From assembly GCA_942491345.1 (NCBI GenBank), contig CALOAN010000020.1, positions 257,671-321,670 of the forward strand: a DNA stretch of 64,000 bases, given 5' to 3'. The notes below the pieces were generated by a model, which saw only the letters and a program-made list of their open reading frames with translations, ran no database searches and was not told the DNA's origin. This stretch comes from an uncultured actinomycete (lineage in GTDB: Bacteria; Actinomycetota; Acidimicrobiia; Spongiisociales; UBA5794). The translations under genes and the position numbers were made by a program. This document shows positions 45,906 to 58,682 of this stretch, in pieces; positions within the stretch are counted from its first letter, which is position 1; every line of letters begins with the position of its first letter.

Positions 45906-45988
45906 GGAGGTCTCCGATCAGCTTGGGGTATCCCATTATGACCGGGTCACGGTGAAGCCCGCTGGAGGGAGTAGTCGTCGTCCTTGTC

Positions 45989-46471
45989 CTACTTGTCTTT
46001 GTCTTTGTCCTTGTCTTTGTCCTGGCCGGGTGGTGTGTCCTTGTCCTTCGCCTGGCCGGGCGGGGTAGACGTCGCTTCGTCTTTGTCCTGGCCGGGTGGT
46101 GTGTCCTTGTCCTTTGCCTGGCCGGGCGGGGTAGACGTCGCTTCGTCTTTGTCCTGGCCGGGTGGTGTGTCCTTGTCCTTTGCCTGGCCGGGCGGAACAC
46201 ACATGTCTCTGTCCTGGCCCGGAGGCACGGGCTTGTCCCGGTCTACTTGGCCGGGGGGGATGCAGTCTTCCTTGTTCTGGCCCGGCGCCGTTGAAACACC
46301 ATGGTCGACCGGCTCGGCGGTGCCGGACGGCTCGGCGGTGCCGGACGGCGGTGGTGCCGGCGGTGGTGCCGGCGGTGGTGTCTGGAGCGTTCGTGGTGGA
46401 CGGCACGATCGGCTGGGCCCACGCGGCGGCCACTGCCACACGCTCGTTTTCGGCCCGGTGATCATCGGCAT
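45989..46471 (-). CDS. Low-complexity PPGQ/DK-repeat protein; reading frame and N-terminus ambiguous
   Basis: This frame has the better GC3 across the repeats (PPGQAKDKDTPPGQDKDEATST units, DKDKDK tail). It lacks any signal/TM segment. An upstream TM-containing ORF start at 46556 lies in a different frame. Confidence 0.45.
   Translation of the reverse strand: MPMITGPKTSVWQWPPRGPSRSCRPPRTLQTPPPAPPPAPPPSGTAEPSGTAEPVDHGVSTAPGQNKEDCIPPGQVDRDKPVPPGQDRDMCVPPGQAKDKDTPPGQDKDEATSTPPGQAKDKDTPPGQDKDEATSTPPGQAKDKDTPPGQDKDKDKDKDK
46019..46195 (-). repeat. About 2.7 x 66-bp tandem repeat (22-aa PPGQ units), flanked by degenerate copies and a (DK)n hexamer tract
   Basis: Copies at 46019-46084, 46085-46150 and 46151-46195. 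One mismatch between copies 1 and 2. Confidence 0.9.
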
Positions 46472-46937
46472 GGGACAGTGCGAGCACGTTCACAGCCACG
46501 GCGGTGGTGGCGAACGCGACGGCAATGATGACGATGATCTGGTCGCGCATCCGCATGATTCCGGCCTTTCGCTCGTCCGATGCCACTGTGCTCGCAGCGA
46601 TCTCATATTGAATATCGGCACTTGGTCGGCATTCCCGCAGAGTGATTGTGAAATAACGCGTTGGGACTAGTCCCTCCTGACCGGTGTGCGATAGCTGAGC
46701 CGTGATCGGGGTACGACCACGTTCTCCCGGTTCGTCACGGCCCCGACCATGGCGTGAGCAGGAGAACAGGCGAGACAACGTGTGTCGAGGTATCCCCCTC
46801 CGCTGGGAATTCATGGAGTCTGGCTGTCACGATCGTACGGCCTGTGCGTGATTCTGAGGAGATTCTCAGACTTCGCGGGATGGGTTTCCCGATTCGATCC
46901 CTAGCCTCACCGCCACTGTTCTCTACGAAGGAACCCC

Positions 46938-49066: not shown

Positions 49067-51205
49067 TCACGCCGCGATGTCGTGTCTGGCCGGCGAAGGA
49101 TCTCGGACGGAGTTCCGAGGAAGGAACATCGGGATCACCACGAGGGCGGTGAGTGCGCTGGTGATCATCGCGACCCACATGATCATGGATACCTGCGAGT
49201 GGACCTTGAGCGGCGAGACCCACAGGGCCGTCATTGCGACGGCAATCCCGAGGGCATTCGCGACGATCGGTCGTCCAGCGCGGTCGATGGCGCGCAGCAC
49301 GTAGCCGTCGCCTCGCGGCCGTGCGTTGTTGATGGCTGCGATGAAATGGATGGCGTAGTCGATTCCCACGCCGATCACGATGCTCGAGAGAATGGCGGTG
49401 ACGAGATTCAGATTGATGCCCGACATCGAGATAAAGCCGAGCACCGTTGCGATCGTGAGTGTGATGGGAACAAGCGCCACAATGGTCTCCTTGATGTTCC
49501 GATAGGCGATGAGAAGCATCAGGGCCACGAGAACGAAGGCGACGATGATCGATGTCATCTGTGCATTCAGCACGAGGCGGGCGATCTCATCCCACACGAT
49601 CGGCATCCCGGTGAGGGTCAGGATCTCTGGTGTGTTCTCGGCGAACGTAACCCACGCTTCGAGGTCCTCGGTCGTGAAGTCTGCCGGGAAGACCATGAAC
49701 CGCAGACCATCGTTGCTCGCCATATCGCCGAGTGGGAAGGTGAATCCGCCGGCGACAACACTCTGTATCTCGTCGGGGCTGAGCTGTGTCGCCACATCGG
49801 CGATCGAGAACACCCTCCGAATGCCGGGCAGCGCCTCGAGCTCTCTCGACACGGCCGTGATCTCGTTGAGACCCTCGAGCCCCTCGGAGGGAGCAAAGGC
49901 GAACTCGCCTGCTAGCGGTGTCGCCCCGCCGAACACCTCTTCGGTCTTTGCGAAGGCCTCGCGCACCGGGTCACCGTCTTTGAAGAAGAAGAGCTGATCC
50001 GAGTCGACTTGGAGTTGTGGAATGAAGACCGCGGCGTACACGACGATCGCCCCACAGATGACCAATGCCGGGGTACGGGTTCGGACGAGCGATTTGATGC
50101 CCGACGTCACTCGCGGCCCGAGCATCGCCTTGCCACTGGCGTCGCGGACGGTGATACGACTCATGAGCGCTGGAAGGGAGAAGAAGGAGATGATGCCGGC
50201 GAAGCCGATACCGATCGCAGCGAAGAGCCCGAGCTGACGGATTGGTGACACCCCCGTCGCGAGCAGGGAGAGGAAACCTGCAGACGTGCTGATCGTCGTG
50301 AGGATCATCGGCACGCCGACTTCGGAGAGAGCCGCGCGAACTCGGCCAACGGAGTCTCCCCGACTGGCCGACTCCTGGAAATGGGTGACGAAGTGCAGGC
50401 CGTCGGCCGATCCCATGACGATGACGAAGATGGGTACGAGCAGGGTCACGATGTCGACCTTCAGTCCAAGGCCGAAGATCAGCCCGAACGTCCAGAGCGC
50501 ACCCAGCCCCGCCGGAAGGAGGGACAGAGCGCTCAGCCGGAGGTCGCCAATCGTCAGGTAGAAGACGCCGACGAGCAGGGCGATGACGAGGGGGGGAATG
50601 ATCAGCAGGAACCACGAGAAGATGTCAAGCACCTTCGCGAATATGACGGGGTTGCCAGAGAGAGTGACCTCGACACCGCTCGGCGCTTCCATCTCGCCGA
50701 GGGTCCTCGCGAGGGCCGTCGCGTCGTCGGCCGGGATGACCAGCATCAGGGTGTTTCTGCCACTCTCGTCGAGCAGGATCCCGGAGACGGGGCTCGTATC
50801 GATCAACGCGACAATCGCCTGTTCCGGAGCGGAGCTGACGGCGGCCGCGGTGATCGGTTCCCCGGTGATGGGATTCTCGTCGGGGATGATGGTCGCAACA
50901 CTCTCGACCCCGTCGACGGCGAGGATCTGATCTCGCAGCCCAACCAACGTGACGAGGCCCGCCTTCGATCGGAATGTCTCACCTTCCGGAAGTGTGATCA
51001 CCACGTTGATGGGATCGCCGGTGTTGTACTTCTCCTGAAGTTCTACAAACGCCTCACCGGCCTCGCTGCCGGTGAGGGCGAACGAGCTGATGTCGGCGTT
51101 GAACTGCATCCTGAACAGCATCACGACGGCGATGAGGCTGATCAGCGCGGTCGCAGCCAGGATCGGCTTGCTTTTCAGAACGATGACGCGAGCGATGCGT
51201 TCCAT
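49067..51205 (-). CDS. MMPL/RND-superfamily membrane transporter
   Basis: 712 aa from MERIARVIVLKSKPIL. Two 6-TM bundles, each preceded by a large soluble loop. GSADGLHF and GVGIDYAIHF motifs are typical of MMPL/SSD proteins. Confidence 0.85.
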   Translation of the reverse strand: MERIARVIVLKSKPILAATALISLIAVVMLFRMQFNADISSFALTGSEAGEAFVELQEKYNTGDPINVVITLPEGETFRSKAGLVTLVGLRDQILAVDGVESVATIIPDENPITGEPITAAAVSSAPEQAIVALIDTSPVSGILLDESGRNTLMLVIPADDATALARTLGEMEAPSGVEVTLSGNPVIFAKVLDIFSWFLLIIPPLVIALLVGVFYLTIGDLRLSALSLLPAGLGALWTFGLIFGLGLKVDIVTLLVPIFVIVMGSADGLHFVTHFQESASRGDSVGRVRAALSEVGVPMILTTISTSAGFLSLLATGVSPIRQLGLFAAIGIGFAGIISFFSLPALMSRITVRDASGKAMLGPRVTSGIKSLVRTRTPALVICGAIVVYAAVFIPQLQVDSDQLFFFKDGDPVREAFAKTEEVFGGATPLAGEFAFAPSEGLEGLNEITAVSRELEALPGIRRVFSIADVATQLSPDEIQSVVAGGFTFPLGDMASNDGLRFMVFPADFTTEDLEAWVTFAENTPEILTLTGMPIVWDEIARLVLNAQMTSIIVAFVLVALMLLIAYRNIKETIVALVPITLTIATVLGFISMSGINLNLVTAILSSIVIGVGIDYAIHFIAAINNARPRGDGYVLRAIDRAGRPIVANALGIAVAMTALWVSPLKVHSQVSMIMWVAMITSALTALVVIPMFLPRNSVRDPSPARHDIAA

Positions 51206-51429
51206 GGCGCCATCGTAGAGGCTGCACGCCGACGACCTCTCCGTCGTTTGTCCGAGCGAAGGGTGGAGGTGAGGTCCGCCACGGCGTCTCGTGCGTCCGG
51301 CGCCGCGCACGGATACCCGGGTAGTGCATAGCGGAGGGCGTACGATGAGACCGACGGCAGCCGCATCACCTACGCAACGCGGAGGTGCAGCTTGGTGGCG
51401 TTGAGCGGCCCGCATAACATTCGTCGCGA

Positions 51430-54400
51430 TTGCTCGATTGGAGGCGTCATCGGGGACGGACCATGACGGACCAGGAGACGTCGCGAGACGCAGCGGGAAT
51501 CTCGCTGCGTCGGTACGCGATCGGAATCATCGCGCCGATCTTGATCTCGGTGCTATCCCAGTTCGAATTGGTGCAGAATCTCGATGGTTCTCTGATCCCG
51601 GGCCTGCCCTGGGATGTGGGCCGTTGGGAGATCATCGCGGACATCTTCGCACCATCATGGGCGGTTTCGCTCCTGGTGCTCGCTGCGCTTCTCCGGCGTC
51701 TCGTCGGTGTGTGGCCCGGGCCGCAAGGCCCGCCCGCGACCGGCTGGTTTGCCGAGACATTCCTCACTGAACGATGGGCGGTTCGAGCTACATGGATGTC
51801 GACCGCTGGTGCCGTGCTCCTCATCCTGTTCGCCTGGACGAGGGAGTGGGAGCGGTTCGGTCAGCGCCCGTCGGCGTTTTGGTATGCCGCGCTTCTGGTC
51901 GGAACGGTTGCGCTGCTCGTTGTGCCTGCGTGGTGGATACGACACGACCTCTTCGCAGCTACCTCCCGCTATTTCCTCGGCTCCCGCTGGTTCGCCGCAT
52001 CGGAGAGATACTTCTTCGACGAGCCGCAGCACCACCCCAGATGGGCGAACGCCCTTGCCCTCGCGTCGGTGACGCTGGTAGGTGGCCTCGTCGTGCTTGC
52101 CCAGCTTGACCGACTTCTGCAGGGCATGCGGGCGGAAGGCGCGGGCCGTGTGGGCATTGCGAGCCTTGCCGGCATGCTGGAAGTGGACCTCAGTCGAAAG
52201 CCGGGCTTGATCGCGGAGCGGGTCGGAGTGTGGAGGGACTACAGCGACTCGATTGGGGACGGCTTCGCCTCCGCCTACCAGGTGGTTGTCACCCACGTGC
52301 TCGTTGACTCGTTGCTTGTGGTCCCGGCAATCGCCGTCATTGGGATCATTCTTGTCATTGCCACGTGGCGACATCGACCGACTGCGGCGCCTCCGTCGGT
52401 GACCACGAGCTACGCCATCATCGTCCAGACTGCGCTCGCCGTTCTCATAGTGGTGGTTGTCGCGGATTTCCTCGAGAACCTCTTCACCTGGTACGTCGTT
52501 GACCGTGCGTGGAGGCCCGATTCCTTCCTTGTACCCGCGAACGTGCGCATCTTGTGGGCGGTCTCGCTGACCCGGACGGTCGGGCTGGTGCTCCTCGGTG
52601 CATTTGCGGTTCTGCTGGTTGCACTTCGCGGGGTTCATCCGAGGCGGCTATTTGTCGCAATAGGCGCCGTTCGGGCGGAGTTGATCCTCCTTGCCATCGT
52701 GGCGATCGTGCTCTTGACCCAAGCGCAAGCCGCTGATGTAGTCCGGCAATGGGATGTCACGATCGCTCTGATCACGGTGTTCATGGCGACCGTGCTTGCC
52801 ATGTTGCTGCACCAAACATCGTCAACCACGTTGTCGAGGCTCAGGAACGACGCCGAGGCATCGGACGAAGGCCACCCTCCCACGCCGGCTGAGGTCGAGA
52901 TGCCCGGAATCGGTCGACTCGGCCTCAGGACCGCAGTCGTAGCCGCCATCTTCCTCGTGGCCGGGATGCAGATCGTCATGAGGGCAGGGCTGCTCTGGCC
53001 CGTCGGGCTTGGGTTCCTGATCCCGGCTGCAATCATCGCCGTGCTGTGGACGTTCGGCCTGGCGCTTCCACCGAAGGCGTTCAACCGGGGAGACCGCGCC
53101 GTCTCCGCACACGCCAGGAAGCTGATTCCACGGTTCCTTGGAGCGGCGGTGTTCGTGGCGCTGGGGATCACGGTGTTGAAGGCGGCGATCCCGAATCTTG
53201 TGTTCGCACGGCACGAGGATTGGTATCTCCTCTTTTGCGTCGTGCCGATCGCTGCCGGTGTGTGGCGAATGGCTCGCGGTACCTACGACACCATGGGTGC
53301 ACTCGAGATTGTGATCGCCGGATTGGTCGGCGCTGCGGCACTGGTCAGGATCATCATCGGGGACCAGGAGCTCTCACCTGGAGCCCTGACCTTCGTGGGT
53401 GTGATGATCCTGTACGGAGCCTTGCCGTTCTTCTATTCGTACGAGCATGGCTCGCTACCCAGCCGGTTCACGACCGAGCGACTGGGGTGGGTGCCGGTCC
53501 GTCCGTTGATCTTGATCGGTGCCGCCATTGGGGCGATCCTGGCCTTCGTGCTCGTCGTCCAGCCTGTGCGCATCGCACCCGAGATCGGCACGATCGCCAT
53601 TGTGCTCACCGGGGCGATGTTCCTGACTCTGATCGGTGCGGGCATGGTGCGGTTCTCGGAACGAACCGAGTCACCTCGAGTCCTCGCGGCCTTCGGCATC
53701 AATCGAACACCGATGTTCATCTTCCTCGGCGTGTGGCTGCTCGTCGGCGGATCAATCGTCACGACCGGCAACAATGTCCAGCTGATCGACTCATCGGACC
53801 GGGAGCCCGATGGGCTTGCGGTCGGTGCTTCGATCGACAGTATTTGGGAACGCTGGCTCGAACGTAATGCGACCGCGCTCGATGCAGCATCCGGGGTTGA
53901 ACGGGGCGCGATACCGATGGTGCTCGTCTCGAGCTCCGGCGGAGGGGCACGCGCCAGCGTGTGGACCTCGTATGTGCTCGATTGCCTTTTCGAACGCAAG
54001 TCGGACGGTGAGACGTCGTGTGGCGGCACGCGCGAGCCGGGGGAAGGCCGATCCAGCACGATTGCGTTGATGAGTGGGGTGTCCGGTGGTGGTCTCGGGA
54101 TTGCTGGATACTCGTCGTACCTGGCTGATCCTTCGGGTGCGGCCGGGGAGGACTGGGTCAAGGACAAGATGGGCACCGACTCTCTCTCGCCCGCGATGGC
54201 ATGGCTGATGTACGTCGATCTGCCGCGGGCTTTGATCGGCTACGGATCAGGGATTCCTGATCGAGCCGCCGTCACCGAGTGGGCGTGGGAAGCACCTTGG
54301 ACCAACGGAGGGGCGCTCGGACGCGGGGTCTTCGACTTGTGGCACAACGAGCCTGGGCTACCCCCCGTCGTGTTCAACGGTACGAGCGTGGGGGACAGCT

Positions 54401-55188
54401 GCCGCTTCAACGCGTCGGTCTTCGAAACCAACGCACAGCCGCCGGGATCTTCCTGTATGGACCTGTCCGTCTACGAAACCGGCAGGGCAGCAGCACCCGG
54501 GAGGGTGCTTGCAGCCACCGAGGACCTCGCCGACTACTTGTGCGCGAACCAGGACATGCGTCTATCGACGGCGGTTCATCTCGCCGCACGATTCCCTGTC
54601 ATCGCAGCTTCAGGGCGAGTCGGCGCTGATCTCGTAGATTGTGGATCGGAGGGTCGCGTCGCATACGTGGTTGACGGCGGGTATCTCGAGGGATCTGCAT
54701 CGAGCACGGTGGTCGAGATATGGAGCACGCTCGAGGAGCACGTTGCCCGGCACAACGCAACAGCGACTTCGGAACCGTGCATCGTTCCTGTGCTTGTTCA
54801 CATCGACAACGGCTACGAGGAGCCGGCTCCGGCCGCTGCCGATCCCGACCCCGGAGAACTGCTGCTGCCGGTGCGCGCCTTGGCAGGCGGGCAGTTCGGT
54901 CGCTACGCCAACGCTCGACAGTCCGAAGCGCTCGAGTTCTCACGGCAATTCTCCGTCGGCGGGTCGGAGGCCACTATCCGCAGCGCGGACGGATCGGTGC
55001 TCGATGATCGCTACGTTCGCATCACGACCCGCGCTCACCCCGGGGTGCAGGCTCCTCTCGGTTGGAGTCTGTCGGACGCCTCGATCGACGACCTCCGAGG
55101 TCAACTCGATTTGCCGTCCAATCGAAGGGAGGTCGCCGAGGTGAGGACGTGGCTCGACGGCGCACTGACGTGTTCCGTGGGCTCGTAG
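51430..55188 (+). CDS. Giant polytopic membrane protein with a C-terminal patatin-like phospholipase domain
   Basis: 1252 aa (start TTG 51430 or ATG 51463). About 19 hydrophobic stretches in the first ~790 aa. Then GGGARA oxyanion motif (53938-53952), GVSGG nucleophile elbow (54076-54090, Ser codon 54082) and DGG catalytic Asp motif (54673-54681). Confidence 0.8.
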   Translation: MLDWRRHRGRTMTDQETSRDAAGISLRRYAIGIIAPILISVLSQFELVQNLDGSLIPGLPWDVGRWEIIADIFAPSWAVSLLVLAALLRRLVGVWPGPQGPPATGWFAETFLTERWAVRATWMSTAGAVLLILFAWTREWERFGQRPSAFWYAALLVGTVALLVVPAWWIRHDLFAATSRYFLGSRWFAASERYFFDEPQHHPRWANALALASVTLVGGLVVLAQLDRLLQGMRAEGAGRVGIASLAGMLEVDLSRKPGLIAERVGVWRDYSDSIGDGFASAYQVVVTHVLVDSLLVVPAIAVIGIILVIATWRHRPTAAPPSVTTSYAIIVQTALAVLIVVVVADFLENLFTWYVVDRAWRPDSFLVPANVRILWAVSLTRTVGLVLLGAFAVLLVALRGVHPRRLFVAIGAVRAELILLAIVAIVLLTQAQAADVVRQWDVTIALITVFMATVLAMLLHQTSSTTLSRLRNDAEASDEGHPPTPAEVEMPGIGRLGLRTAVVAAIFLVAGMQIVMRAGLLWPVGLGFLIPAAIIAVLWTFGLALPPKAFNRGDRAVSAHARKLIPRFLGAAVFVALGITVLKAAIPNLVFARHEDWYLLFCVVPIAAGVWRMARGTYDTMGALEIVIAGLVGAAALVRIIIGDQELSPGALTFVGVMILYGALPFFYSYEHGSLPSRFTTERLGWVPVRPLILIGAAIGAILAFVLVVQPVRIAPEIGTIAIVLTGAMFLTLIGAGMVRFSERTESPRVLAAFGINRTPMFIFLGVWLLVGGSIVTTGNNVQLIDSSDREPDGLAVGASIDSIWERWLERNATALDAASGVERGAIPMVLVSSSGGGARASVWTSYVLDCLFERKSDGETSCGGTREPGEGRSSTIALMSGVSGGGLGIAGYSSYLADPSGAAGEDWVKDKMGTDSLSPAMAWLMYVDLPRALIGYGSGIPDRAAVTEWAWEAPWTNGGALGRGVFDLWHNEPGLPPVVFNGTSVGDSCRFNASVFETNAQPPGSSCMDLSVYETGRAAAPGRVLAATEDLADYLCANQDMRLSTAVHLAARFPVIAASGRVGADLVDCGSEGRVAYVVDGGYLEGSASSTVVEIWSTLEEHVARHNATATSEPCIVPVLVHIDNGYEEPAPAAADPDPGELLLPVRALAGGQFGRYANARQSEALEFSRQFSVGGSEATIRSADGSVLDDRYVRITTRAHPGVQAPLGWSLSDASIDDLRGQLDLPSNRREVAEVRTWLDGALTCSVGS

Positions 55189-55231: not shown

Positions 55232-55774
55232 TCAGCCGCCGAAGCGTTCGGCAAACTCAGCGAAGATATCTCGGCACTGCTCATCTGCGGCGACGAAGGC
55301 AGGGTCGTCCGGGTCGAACGGCAGATCGCCATCTTCGATGATCGACGTGAGATCAATGCTGTCCGGAATGTCCTCGATGCCCTGCTCCCGCATACATGTG
55401 GCGTACTCGAGGAACGTGTCGTCGAACTCGGCCGTATCGAAGTCCAGGAGGTTCAACACCACACCCTCGATGAGATACCGGCATTCCTCTCCGGCTTCGA
55501 ACATGGCGTCCTGATCGATCGACTCGGGATCGTCGAAGTCAAATCGCGGAAGGCCGTTTGCATCGACACTCGGGTCGGGGAAGTCCATGCCTTGATCGCG
55601 CATACAGGCGGCGAACTCGATCAGAGCTTCTTCATCCGACAACGCTTGGGTTGTGTCGGTCACCGAGGCGTCGGCTGTGGCTTCGATCGATGCCACGTCG
55701 GCGGTGTCGTCTCCGCCCCCGCAGGCGGCGAGAGCGAGGACGAAGACGGCGATGAGGGTGGCGATTCGACTCAC
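55232..55774 (-). CDS. Acidic lipoprotein with a duplicated two-Cys module
   Basis: GTG at 55774 follows a GAGGAG RBS. Lipobox LALAACGG. Two related ~55-aa modules, each with C...C (FAACMRDQGMDFPDP / YATCMREQGIEDIPD). Confidence 0.65.
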   Translation of the reverse strand: MSRIATLIAVFVLALAACGGGDDTADVASIEATADASVTDTTQALSDEEALIEFAACMRDQGMDFPDPSVDANGLPRFDFDDPESIDQDAMFEAGEECRYLIEGVVLNLLDFDTAEFDDTFLEYATCMREQGIEDIPDSIDLTSIIEDGDLPFDPDDPAFVAADEQCRDIFAEFAERFGG

Positions 55775-56051
55775 GGCGGGCTCCTCTGTTCGTTCTCCTC
55801 CAAGGTACCGCGCCGGTCGGCTACTCATCGTTGGAGCGCGGCAGAACCCCTGGAGGGCGCTTGGTTCTTTCCACCTCGATGGGTGCGGGTCTATGGACCC
55901 GATGCTGTGCGCCGCAGGGGTTCTGCTCTGTCCGCGCATCGTCGCGCCCGGCGATCTCGGTGTCCAGGACTATTTCCCGCCGTAGACACCACGGTCTCGG
56001 CAGCGCACGTTGGCACTGCCACGGTGAGGCTCCGAGGCATCCAAGGTACGA

Positions 56052-56387: not shown

Positions 56388-56570
56388 CAGCCTACGCGTA
56401 CAGGCACAGTCGGGGTGACTTCGGTAGTTCTCAAGCCGAGGGTGACGGCCAACCCCAAACGTCGAGGCATGCCTTCCTCAGACGTGATCTGAAGGCAGCG
56501 ATTGATCGATCCGAGGAGCCCGTCCGGGGTGCCGGTAGGCTGCCGGGCACGTTCTCGAAGGAGCACACCG

Positions 56571-58682
56571 TTGGAAGACTGGATCGCGAAGGAAGGCTAT
56601 CCAGGGCGTGGTGGTGTTACTCATGTGGCCCGGCTCAACGCCTACAACTTTGCGATCTACTCGAAACACGCGACGTTCGTCCGGCTCAATCTGTATCGAT
56701 CTGGATCCGTGGTGGCGCCCTTCTTCACCTACGACTTCGACCCACTCAAGAACAAGACCGGCCGCATCTGGCACTGCATGATTCCCGAATCGGCTGCTCG
56801 CGACGCGATCTACTATTCCTACACGGTCGATGGCCCGAACAACCCTGCCCAAGGATTTCGCTTCGACCCCGACAAGGTTCTCCTCGACCCGTATGCGAAG
56901 GCCGTCTACTTCCCGCCCAACTTCGATCGCGGCGCCGCCCGCCGACCCGGATCCAACGCCGGACAGGCACCGCTCGGGGTGATGTGCTGCTCTCAACCCG
57001 GGCGTCGGCACGAGACCGATCGTACGCCCCGCATGCACGGTCACGACCTGGTCATCTACGAGGCCCACGTTCGCAACTTCACCCGACACCCCTCCTCGGG
57101 CATAGACCGAGACCGCCGAGGCACGTACGCCGGATTCGCAGAGAAGATCCCGTATCTGAAGGACCTAGGCGTGACGGCCGTCGAACTCATGCCGGTATTC
57201 CAGGCGGACCCCCAGGAAGGTTCAACATGGGGCTACATGACGTTGGGGTTCTTCGCACTCCACGGGCAATACGCGCGGTCGGCGGTCGCGGGCGAGCAGC
57301 TCGACGAGTTCCACGACCTGGTCGCCGCACTCCATGAGGCCAACATCGAAGTGATCCTTGATGTCGTGTTCAACCACACCACCGAGGGTGACCACAACGG
57401 CCCGACCTACTCGCAGCGAGGCATCGACAACACCACGTACTACCTGTTGGAAGAGGATCGCCGGTACTACCGCAACGATGCCGGGACGGGCAACGTCATC
57501 AGGGCCGACAACCGGTTCGTGCGAACGTTCATCCTGGACAGCCTGCGGTACTGGGTGAATGAGATGCACGTAGACGGATTCCGCTTCGACCTGGCGTCGA
57601 TCCTCACCAGGAGAGCCGACGGGTCGGTCGATCTCGGTGATCCGCCGCTCATCTCGGCCATCCGCGCCGATCCGACGCTGCGCGACATACGGCTCATTGC
57701 CGAGGCCTGGGACCTCGGTAGCTACCAGCTCGGCCGGGCCTTCCCCGGCACCTACTGGACGCAGTGGAACGGGGCATTTCGCGATGACGTGCGGGGTTTT
57801 GTCCGCGGCGATGAGGGCAAGGTCCCGTCGCTGATGCGACGGCTCTATGGGAGCGACGATCTCTTCCCGGACACGTTGGCGGACTCGTACCGTCCTTATC
57901 AGGGAGTGAACTTCGTGACTTCTCACGACGGGTTCACGCTCTACGACCTCGTCGCCTACAACCGCAAGCACAACCAGGCAAACGGCCACAACAACAACGA
58001 CGGATCTGACTACAACCTGTCTTGGAACTGCGGCTGGGAGGGCGACGCCGGTGTTTCGGACGAGGTCGTCGCGCTTCGCCGGCGACAGGCGAAGAACTTC
58101 GCCGCCATTCTCATGCTGTCGAACGGCGTTCCCATGTTCCGCATGGGCGACGAGTTTCTCACGACCCAGGGCGGCAACAACAATCCTTACAACCAAGACA
58201 ACGCCACCACCTGGATCGATTGGGACCGGATGGACGAATTCGCGGCTGTTCGTCGCTTCTTCCGATTGATGATTGCGTTCCGCGGCGCGCATCCGTCGAT
58301 CGGGCGCAGCACCTTCTGGCGGGATGACGTCACCTGGTTTGGCACATCTGGTCCTCCCGACCTCAGTGTCGGCTCGCACAGCATCGCCTACGCGCTGAGC
58401 GGCGCCTCTGAGCAGGACGACGACCTCTACGTCATGATCAATGCGTGGACCGAGCCGCTCGAGTTCACCATCCAGGAAGGAGAGCCGGGGGAGTGGCGGC
58501 GCGTCATCGATACGTCACTCGCATCACCGGACGACATCGCCGAGGACCTAGATGGTGAGGTGGTCGACCGCCGAACCTGTAGGGTCGACTCGCGGTCGGT
58601 TGTGGTCCTGGTCCGGCCTGTGGCGGAAAGTCGCGAAGGGAACCGAGGCGGGCTATTCCTCCTCGAGGATGCTCCGCAGTAG
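56571..58682 (+). CDS. glgX: Glycogen debranching enzyme (isoamylase-type, GH13)
   Basis: GH13 motifs VILDVVFNHT, GFRFDLASIL and AEAWD, plus N-terminal NFAIYS. TTG at 56571 follows an AAGGAG RBS. The track ORF opens at 56502. Confidence 0.85.
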   Translation: MEDWIAKEGYPGRGGVTHVARLNAYNFAIYSKHATFVRLNLYRSGSVVAPFFTYDFDPLKNKTGRIWHCMIPESAARDAIYYSYTVDGPNNPAQGFRFDPDKVLLDPYAKAVYFPPNFDRGAARRPGSNAGQAPLGVMCCSQPGRRHETDRTPRMHGHDLVIYEAHVRNFTRHPSSGIDRDRRGTYAGFAEKIPYLKDLGVTAVELMPVFQADPQEGSTWGYMTLGFFALHGQYARSAVAGEQLDEFHDLVAALHEANIEVILDVVFNHTTEGDHNGPTYSQRGIDNTTYYLLEEDRRYYRNDAGTGNVIRADNRFVRTFILDSLRYWVNEMHVDGFRFDLASILTRRADGSVDLGDPPLISAIRADPTLRDIRLIAEAWDLGSYQLGRAFPGTYWTQWNGAFRDDVRGFVRGDEGKVPSLMRRLYGSDDLFPDTLADSYRPYQGVNFVTSHDGFTLYDLVAYNRKHNQANGHNNNDGSDYNLSWNCGWEGDAGVSDEVVALRRRQAKNFAAILMLSNGVPMFRMGDEFLTTQGGNNNPYNQDNATTWIDWDRMDEFAAVRRFFRLMIAFRGAHPSIGRSTFWRDDVTWFGTSGPPDLSVGSHSIAYALSGASEQDDDLYVMINAWTEPLEFTIQEGEPGEWRRVIDTSLASPDDIAEDLDGEVVDRRTCRVDSRSVVVLVRPVAESREGNRGGLFLLEDAPQ

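Follow-up and report, generated by a model that had tools for sequence, protein, structure and literature searches.

Known patatin-like enzymes are soluble or peripheral lipases, toxins that are secreted, or defence effectors of the cytosol. Two proteins of Mycobacterium tuberculosis, Rv3239c and Rv3728, which we take to be MFS-NTE fusions and use as a lead only, presumably combine a polytopic region with a C-terminal patatin-like domain; MFS-NTE fusions carry an MFS transporter and cyclic-nucleotide-binding domains. Here we describe a gene from a 64,000-nucleotide stretch of DNA of an uncultured actinomycete of the Acidimicrobiia (assembly GCA_942491345.1, contig CALOAN010000020.1, positions 257,671 to 321,670; hereafter, the window). 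The complete gene lies on the + strand at 51463..55188 and codes for 1241 amino acids (aa), followed by a stop codon; its product joins a polytopic membrane module to a patatin-like domain at the C-terminus. Unlike the MFS-NTE fusions, neither the window protein nor 15 of its relatives has a match to MFS or cyclic-nucleotide-binding domains. An original prediction, made from the sequence alone, had singled out this gene as an intact patatin-like lipase domain fused to a very large membrane module.

Three other described systems invite comparison. The type Vd protein PlpD from Pseudomonas aeruginosa (PDB codes 5FYA and 5FQU) is, like the protein proposed here, a membrane-tethered patatin-like lipase outside the cytoplasmic membrane, and it matches our predicted domain structure in Foldseek (E = 1.4e-3, target TM-score 0.61). 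Its anchor, however, consists of POTRA and an outer-membrane β-barrel in a Gram-negative envelope, whereas the module here is all-helical and belongs to an actinobacterial cytoplasmic membrane; the window protein has no Pfam domain for POTRA or a type Vd β-barrel. Rv3091 of M. tuberculosis is a patatin-like phospholipase of 564 aa, reported to be extracellular, with a Ser214/Asp407 dyad (PMC7517356). Compared by description and not by sequence, it is also an actinobacterial patatin-like protein and its dyad spacing is 193 residues, against 197 here, but it is without a large membrane module, and no Mycobacterium locus was among the 41 loci of our genome scan. Lastly, in the AT3-SGNH acyltransferases OafA, OafB and OatA a polytopic membrane part and an outward serine hydrolase-type domain together acylate envelope carbohydrates (PMC7448272, PMC9558356). 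AT3 proteins take acyl groups through the membrane to acceptors outside the cytoplasm, and a review of them raises the question of whether those of the AT3-only type depend on a partner protein (PMC9558356). The window protein would follow the same logic and its sister-clade counterparts adjoin an AT3-only gene, but this is analogy and not membership: the outward domain is patatin-like and not SGNH, the module is not AT3, the AT3 protein is encoded by a separate gene that the window does not contain, and neither PF01757 nor SGNH matched the window protein or the 15 relatives. None of PlpD, Rv3091, the AT3-SGNH enzymes or the MFS-NTE fusions shares the membrane module.

The open reading frame (ORF) given in the original prediction, 51430..55188 (+), is present in the window, and its translation has the long hydrophobic N-terminal part and the C-terminal motifs described there. 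Its start is probably not the TTG at 51430 that had been chosen, though: this codon is not conserved among five close relatives, whereas the first in-frame ATG, at 51463, gives a protein of 1241 aa, exactly the length of the relatives P0002, P0004 and P0006, and aligns with the start codon in four of the five close relatives (the fifth uses GTG). The catalytic residues named as S885 and D1082 from the TTG had been counted correctly and become Ser874 and Asp1071 from the ATG, the numbering used below. Base composition is uniform across the region, and the full-length relatives in the first protein search span 1207-1257 aa. As the same two-domain protein was found in dozens of independent assemblies, the architecture is, on this recurrence, far beyond chance, and comparison of the sequences indicates that membrane module and lipase domain are encoded by one real, conserved gene.

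That first search returned only 17 relatives; wider searches revealed a far larger family. We searched a profile of the module only (residues 1-800) against 1.84 billion representative proteins, which returned 466 clusters at E ≤ 0.001, of which 253 reach E ≤ 1e-10, and most of the matches listed are 950-1350 aa long. The query held no lipase domain, and still GGGxRA, GxSxG and DGG follow downstream, in that order, in 114 of the 121 matches listed of at least 900 aa. On this evidence the module and the patatin-like domain are an obligate pair, a fixed and unannotated architecture in Actinomycetota. The doubt that the N-terminal region could be a separate gene is thereby removed. Streptomyces, Actinoplanes and Lentzea all have members; the Streptomyces relatives are without exception annotated “hypothetical protein”, and among the members examined the only database names were “hypothetical protein” and “PNPLA domain-containing protein”. 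Full-text literature searches returned no description of this architecture and the database names are uninformative, in keeping with the claim that the fusion is novel.

A scan of one genome per species detected 41 related loci, nearly all in Actinomycetota (Acidimicrobiia, Streptomyces, Lentzea, Microthrixaceae and others), with a few in records titled “Kiloniellales”, “Acidobacteria” or “uncultured bacterium”. Assemblies labelled Kiloniellales or Acidobacteria contain full or partial family members and an AT3 orthologue (L017 in CAXMSN010000033.1; L052/L057 in JACZWZ01). The nearest relatives of these are all from Acidimicrobiia, and so they look like cases of mis-binning rather than horizontal transfer.

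The C-terminal domain comprises residues 769-1241 (53767..55185; this and all parts of the gene given below are on the + strand), has a divergent patatin-like fold and eight cysteines, and is predicted to lie outside the membrane. All three patatin hallmarks reported in the original prediction are present in canonical order: GGGARA (residues 826-831, 53938..53955), the oxyanion-hole glycine loop; GVSGG (residues 872-876, 54076..54090), with the predicted nucleophile Ser874; and DGG (residues 1071-1073, within VDGG 1070-1073; 54673..54681), with the predicted catalytic Asp1071, 197 residues after the serine. These motifs are invariant in 15 relatives and then also in 50 diverse relatives, and among the latter, which outside the closest clade share 25-46% identity, G827, G828, S874, G875, D1071 and G1072 never vary. 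Conservation of the serine and aspartate in homologs, on which the original prediction had staked its case, is thus complete in this sample. The domain also has two strongly conserved family-specific motifs, DNGY and HPGxxAPLGW. The latter reads HPGVQAPLGW in the window protein (residues 1192-1201, 55036..55065), in a part of the structure model where confidence is low; in the 50 sequences P1198 and W1201 are invariant and H1192, P1193, G1194, A1197, L1199 and G1200 each show conservation of 90% or more.

An AlphaFold model of residues 770-1241 (predicted local distance difference test score, pLDDT, 70; predicted template modelling score, pTM, 0.83) places these motifs where a patatin-like enzyme has them. 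Numbered from protein residue 770 as domain residue 1, the glycine loop is found between strand 45-55 and helix 60-74, Ser874 (domain residue 105) stands between strand 98-104 and helix 105-119 in a classic nucleophile elbow, and Asp1071 terminates strand 299-302. In a Foldseek search of the PDB, the best 27 matches are all to CapV, CapE, patatin, cPLA2, PlpD, ExoU or unnamed cryo-EM “lipase” complexes, with E from 2.1e-5 and a probability of 1.00 in 20 of the 27; every match beyond these has E > 1. Against targets the size of patatin, the target TM-scores are 0.45-0.64; the cPLA2 and ExoU chains, which are larger, score lower. Sequence identity to the structural matches is 9-14%. Among the 15 relatives, six match the Pfam patatin model PF01734 (best E = 2e-5). 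A Lentzea relative also does so, with 30.1 bits (gathering score 27.7) over its residues 583-810, from GGGIRA (584) to VDGG (804), and UniRef labels two relatives as patatin-like or PNPLA domain proteins. An alignment by hhalign of the domain profile with a potato patatin sequence was discarded, as it misaligned DGG onto the oxyanion motif.

Set beside the patatin/PNPLA superfamily (PF01734; potato patatin, 1OXW; cPLA2, 1CJY), the domain has the same glycine loop, GxSxG elbow and DGG, with the aspartate about 200 residues after the serine; members of that superfamily are the first matches to its predicted fold, and some relatives pass or approach the Pfam threshold. It differs in having ~150-200 extra residues, eight conserved cysteines and the motifs DNGY and HPGxxAPLGW, in its low identity, and in being covalently joined to a module of 15-19 helices and predicted to lie outside the membrane. 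We therefore regard it, from sequence and model together, as a very divergent member of the superfamily, a relationship that is real but remote.

In a 19-residue hydropathy scan, the membrane module (residues 1-768) displays hydrophobic segments, about 19 in number, from residue 16 to residue 768. An AlphaFold model of residues 1-800 (pLDDT 64.5, pTM 0.60) is all-helical, with helices that match these segments, and so agrees with the ~19 hydrophobic stretches first noted. In most of the matches listed for the N-module profile, the match begins at profile position ~190. We therefore divide the module of the window subfamily into a core of ~15 predicted membrane helices (residues 190-768, 52030..53766), which is without known family or fold, and an N-terminal extension of ~4 (residues 1-190, 51463..52032), which these match starts and the hydrophobic segments mark as specific to the Acidimicrobiia subfamily. 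Some distant members are much longer (L032, 1796 aa; L039, 1538 aa; P0044, 1558 aa), with extra N-terminal hydrophobic and charged regions before the core.

The first inspection had recognised no motif in the N-terminal region, and a Pfam scan of the module from the 15 relatives and 8 distant relatives likewise returned no family. Foldseek of the 1-800 model against the PDB gave no structural match (best E = 0.14, TM-score ~0.1), a profile search of the PDB with the N-module gave no sequence match, hhalign detected no internal repeat in the module, and hhalign of the N-core against an AT3 alignment showed no similarity (probability 0.4%). Assignments of the module as MFS, GT-C-like, MprF-like or AT3-like were considered and find no support in these structure, sequence, repeat and AT3 comparisons.

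Even so, the module has its own pattern of conservation. A charge-based topology model puts DFLEN (residues 335-339, 52465..52479) where membrane helix 7 is predicted to end on the outer side: D335 is invariant and N339 almost invariant in the 15 relatives, and across the 50 both D335 and E338 show conservation of 90% or more. The motif Q-x-x-D-x-x-R-x-W (residues 422-430, 52726..52752) falls in a loop that the same model places facing outward, with Q422 and D425 invariant in the 50 sequences and R428 and W430 at least 90% conserved. Indeed, the conserved polar residues W257, D282, D335/E338/N339 and Q422/D425/R428/W430 are all at the predicted outer face. Because these invariant polar residues cluster there, beside where the catalytic domain would sit, we infer that the module would do more than anchor the enzyme.

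Topology was assessed by the positive-inside rule with a 19-helix model, using hydropathy and the mean Lys/Arg counts of 13 sequences. On the N-terminal side the loops contain on average 35.6 Lys+Arg, against 19.6 on the opposite side, and starting at helix 6 the charge alternation is clean. Positive charge prevails in the loop that precedes the last helix (4.3 Lys+Arg versus 1.6 Asp+Glu), while the 60 residues after it are acidic (4.6 Lys+Arg versus 7.8 Asp+Glu). Cysteines provide an independent argument. They are more frequent in the C-terminal domain than in the membrane module (1.70 versus 0.47 per 100 residues), and in 117 relatives the domain has an even number of them in 110 (binomial p = 6e-25), compared with 50 of 117 for the module; eight is the commonest number (78 proteins), followed by ten (25 proteins). 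Conservation reaches 90% or more in seven cysteine columns (C841, C853, C980, C998, C1027, C1106 and C1237), and three of them are invariant. Since the counts are even and the domain cysteines of the window protein are widely spaced and form no CxxC motif, the pattern strongly suggests structural disulfides formed in an oxidising compartment rather than a metal site. Taken together, these two independent, indirect arguments, from charge distribution and from even cysteine count, indicate that the patatin-like domain very probably faces outside the cytoplasm.

We found a recurrent genomic neighbour outside the clade of the window. In clades 40-50% identical, a gene for an AT3 protein (PF01757) is directly adjacent to the large gene at 19 distinct loci after removal of duplicates (L003, L004, L007, L008, L010, L012, L016, L018-L022, L024-L027, L029, L030 and L034). 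At 12 of them it is downstream on the same strand, with gaps of ~10-20 nt, and at the other seven it is upstream and divergent; an adjacent AT3 gene is missing in L015 and L017, which are fully informative, and in L023, which is partly so. The adjacent AT3 proteins are orthologs, 60-70% identical, and are more conserved than the large proteins beside them. The window belongs to a clade in which the divergent neighbour encodes an MMPL transporter; a neighbour-joining tree joins this clade to the AT3-downstream one with 72% bootstrap support and leaves the AT3-upstream clade outside. As the MMPL clade thus nests among AT3-linked clades, AT3 adjacency is probably ancestral and was lost or replaced in the window lineage. 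Separately, we observed that the AT3-only proteins form an orthologous group (440-480 aa, 55-73% identical) widespread in Acidimicrobiia, at the loci above and at L054-L072. No NCBIfam model matched the two members scanned, and the large patatin gene is the group's sole recurring neighbour among annotated flanking genes.

From these data we think it fairly probable that the protein is an outward-facing, membrane-integrated acyl hydrolase or transacylase acting on envelope lipids or on acylated envelope polymers; its catalytic activity, its substrate class and the role of its membrane module are what we infer from the comparisons above. The N-terminus would be cytoplasmic and ~19 helices would cross the membrane, 15 of them core and four belonging to the lineage-specific extension, while the C-terminal 470 residues would fold outside into the divergent patatin-like domain, held by about four disulfide bonds. 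The Ser874-Asp1071 dyad, with the GGGxRA oxyanion loop, is the predicted active site, at which, on the outward face of the cytoplasmic membrane, ester-linked acyl chains would be cleaved or transferred. The substrate could be an outer-leaflet membrane lipid or an acylated envelope glycoconjugate, and because the invariant polar residues cluster at that predicted face, the conserved membrane module may bind or deliver it.

The AT3 adjacency in sister clades suggests a shared envelope acylation/deacylation pathway. It also permits a more specific proposal, which we hold as doubtful: the family would be the outward-facing partner of AT3-only acyltransferases in Actinomycetota, and its disulfide-bonded patatin-like domain, carried by a membrane fold that has no known relative, would take the place that a non-homologous domain, SGNH, has in OafA/OatA-type enzymes. 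The AT3 protein would move an acyl group across the membrane, the patatin-like domain would accept it on Ser874, and the acyl group would be passed to, or later removed from, an envelope lipid or glycan held by the 15-helix module. In the clade of the window, the enzyme would have become coupled anew, to a lipid that the MMPL-type transporter exports.

Several observations weigh against the function proposed here. The structural match is modest (TM 0.41 on the query), and the model behind it is of moderate confidence (pLDDT 70). For the window protein itself there is no Pfam patatin match, even with the isolated domain at E ≤ 10: single-sequence scans of the whole protein and of the C-terminal 462 aa against Pfam and NCBIfam gave nothing relevant, and phmmer and profiles of 15 and 50 sequences found no patatin among the PDB sequences. 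The hidden Markov model check that the original prediction had called for therefore fails for the window protein, and several of its relatives match PF01734 weakly; these matches, together with the conserved motifs, the predicted fold and the placement of the motifs in it, overturn the lack of a match. The topology derives from hydropathy and a charge count and not from a trained predictor or experiment. As for the AT3 gene, none was found in the 64-kb window (tblastn, best E = 0.18), and the linkage is one-sided: a scan from the AT3 side gave ~20 loci with AT3 orthologs (55-73% identity), and the large gene adjoins only two of them; beside the remainder lie unrelated genes, for example for GMP synthase, NrtR and ABC transporters. 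The large gene thus tends to keep company with AT3 and not the reverse, and the linkage may not apply to the genome of the window. The same scan did not return the L013 genome of the MMPL clade, which, as exact peptide patterns were used, is not evidence of absence.

The original prediction had looked instead to the neighbouring gene, and proposed a dedicated module, made up of the large protein and the divergently encoded MMPL transporter, in which the lipase remodels or deacylates the lipid exported by the MMPL protein, or the reverse. The neighbour (49067..51205, - strand, 712 aa), whose start at 51205 agrees with that in L002, is what it was said to be, an RND transporter of the MMPL / HAE3 / HpnN group: it matches PF03176 (MMPL) in two stretches (E = 4.8e-25; 88.6 bits versus a cut-off of 20.5) and a sterol-sensing domain (E = 1.7e-10), and it is below the NCBIfam cut-offs for HAE3, HpnN and MMPL (score/cut-off 140/352 for TIGR00921, 120/752 for TIGR03480 and 100/875 for TIGR00833). 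The two genes are indeed divergent, but the region they share is not 225 bp; it measures 224 bp from the TTG, or 257 bp (51206..51462) from the favoured ATG. That the pair is retained at four further loci (L001, L002, L009 and L013), and that both proteins would act at the outer membrane face, in line with the predicted topology, speaks for such a module. However, MMPL is the divergent neighbour only there and in the window, and the large proteins of these four loci are 68-88% identical to that of the window, so that all five loci belong to one clade of at least 68% identity. Within it, in the loci long enough to show this, synteny extends over the whole neighbourhood: L001 and L002 have, like the window, a rotamase gene and an MFS gene upstream and a small lipoprotein gene downstream, and the isoamylase gene is also kept in L001, L009 and L013. 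The MMPL adjacency therefore carries no signal beyond descent. The intergenic region is poorly conserved in the five close relatives, with no sigma-70-like promoter match and no conserved operator, and no MMPL gene was found within the 4.5-6 kb examined at any of the 19 AT3-linked loci or ~24 distant relatives. Clustering the neighbours of the latter gave no recurrent partner, in high-GC loci where ORF calling is crude. Going by these comparisons, the MMPL neighbour is clade-specific synteny and not a demonstrated partner; the linkage that the original prediction expected to be conserved is confined to one syntenic clade, with no comparative support for a dedicated module beyond it, and we judge such a module unlikely.

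Other readings concern the domain itself. Most characterised patatin-like enzymes are cytosolic or on the cytosolic face of a membrane, and the helix count may be wrong by one, in which case the predicted side would be reversed; the enzyme might then face the cytoplasm and turn over inner-leaflet phospholipids, as do eukaryotic membrane-anchored PNPLA/NTE enzymes. Given the largely even complement of widely spaced cysteines (mostly eight), free of CxxC in the window protein, and the change from a positively charged loop to an acidic sequence across the last helix, we find this very unlikely. The presence of the CBASS (cyclic oligonucleotide-based antiphage signalling system) proteins CapV and CapE and of the toxin ExoU among the best structural matches recalls another suggestion of the original prediction, that the membrane module is a sensor or channel gating a membrane-destroying patatin effector, whether a toxin, an abortive-infection protein or a CapV-like one. 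Against it, defence-system models (PADLOC) gave no relevant match; no cyclase, sensor or immunity gene is nearby, unlike in defence systems with patatin effectors, and the neighbours are ordinary housekeeping genes; base composition is uniform; the gene tree consists of well-supported clades, each with its own conserved neighbourhood; and a domain that faces outward would not attack the cell's own inner leaflet. Such an effector is highly improbable. Equally hard to credit is that the domain is a non-catalytic binding or structural remnant, with the real function in the membrane module, for example as a transporter. Its extreme divergence (9-14% identity to structural matches) and its strongly conserved family-specific motifs, DNGY and HPGxxAPLGW, could be read in that way, but the oxyanion glycines, serine and aspartate are invariant in 50 sequences that share 25-46% identity, and pseudoenzymes normally lose such catalytic residues. 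An outward-facing acyl hydrolase or transacylase remains the reading we favour.

The other neighbours of the gene in the window encode an aldo-keto reductase, a rotamase, an MFS transporter, an isoamylase and a two-component system. A small gene (55232-55774, - strand) that converges on the large gene encodes a very acidic lipoprotein of ~180 aa with the lipobox LALAAC and two paired-cysteine repeats, FAACMRDQG...EECR and YATCMREQG...EQCR. It matches no Pfam family, is found at the same position in L001, L002, L009 and L013, and probably starts at the GTG at 55774 and not at the ATG at 55939. Downstream of it, the isoamylase gene (56502-58682, + strand) encodes an isoamylase/GlgX-type glycoside hydrolase with CBM48, α-amylase and isoamylase C-terminal domains and is one of the genes in the conserved block of the close clade. 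An ORF of 292 aa (45936-46814, - strand) that lies between the genes for the aldo-keto reductase and the rotamase also has no Pfam family; its counterpart in L001 has 184 aa and no Pfam match, so its true start is probably further downstream.

The catalytic fold of the window protein is thus a familiar one, while an orphan module of 15-19 helices, a predicted outward topology and predicted disulfides are features for which we found no description in the literature. If our interpretation is correct, this would be a bacterial polytopic protein of the cytoplasmic membrane that displays a disulfide-locked patatin domain on the outside, and it would represent hundreds of sequence clusters in Actinomycetota, all effectively unannotated among the names examined, with a membrane module that has no Pfam family or structural relative. 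Its recurrent adjacency to AT3-only genes makes the question of whether AT3 proteins need a partner testable, and homologs in cultivable Streptomyces strains would make the family experimentally tractable.

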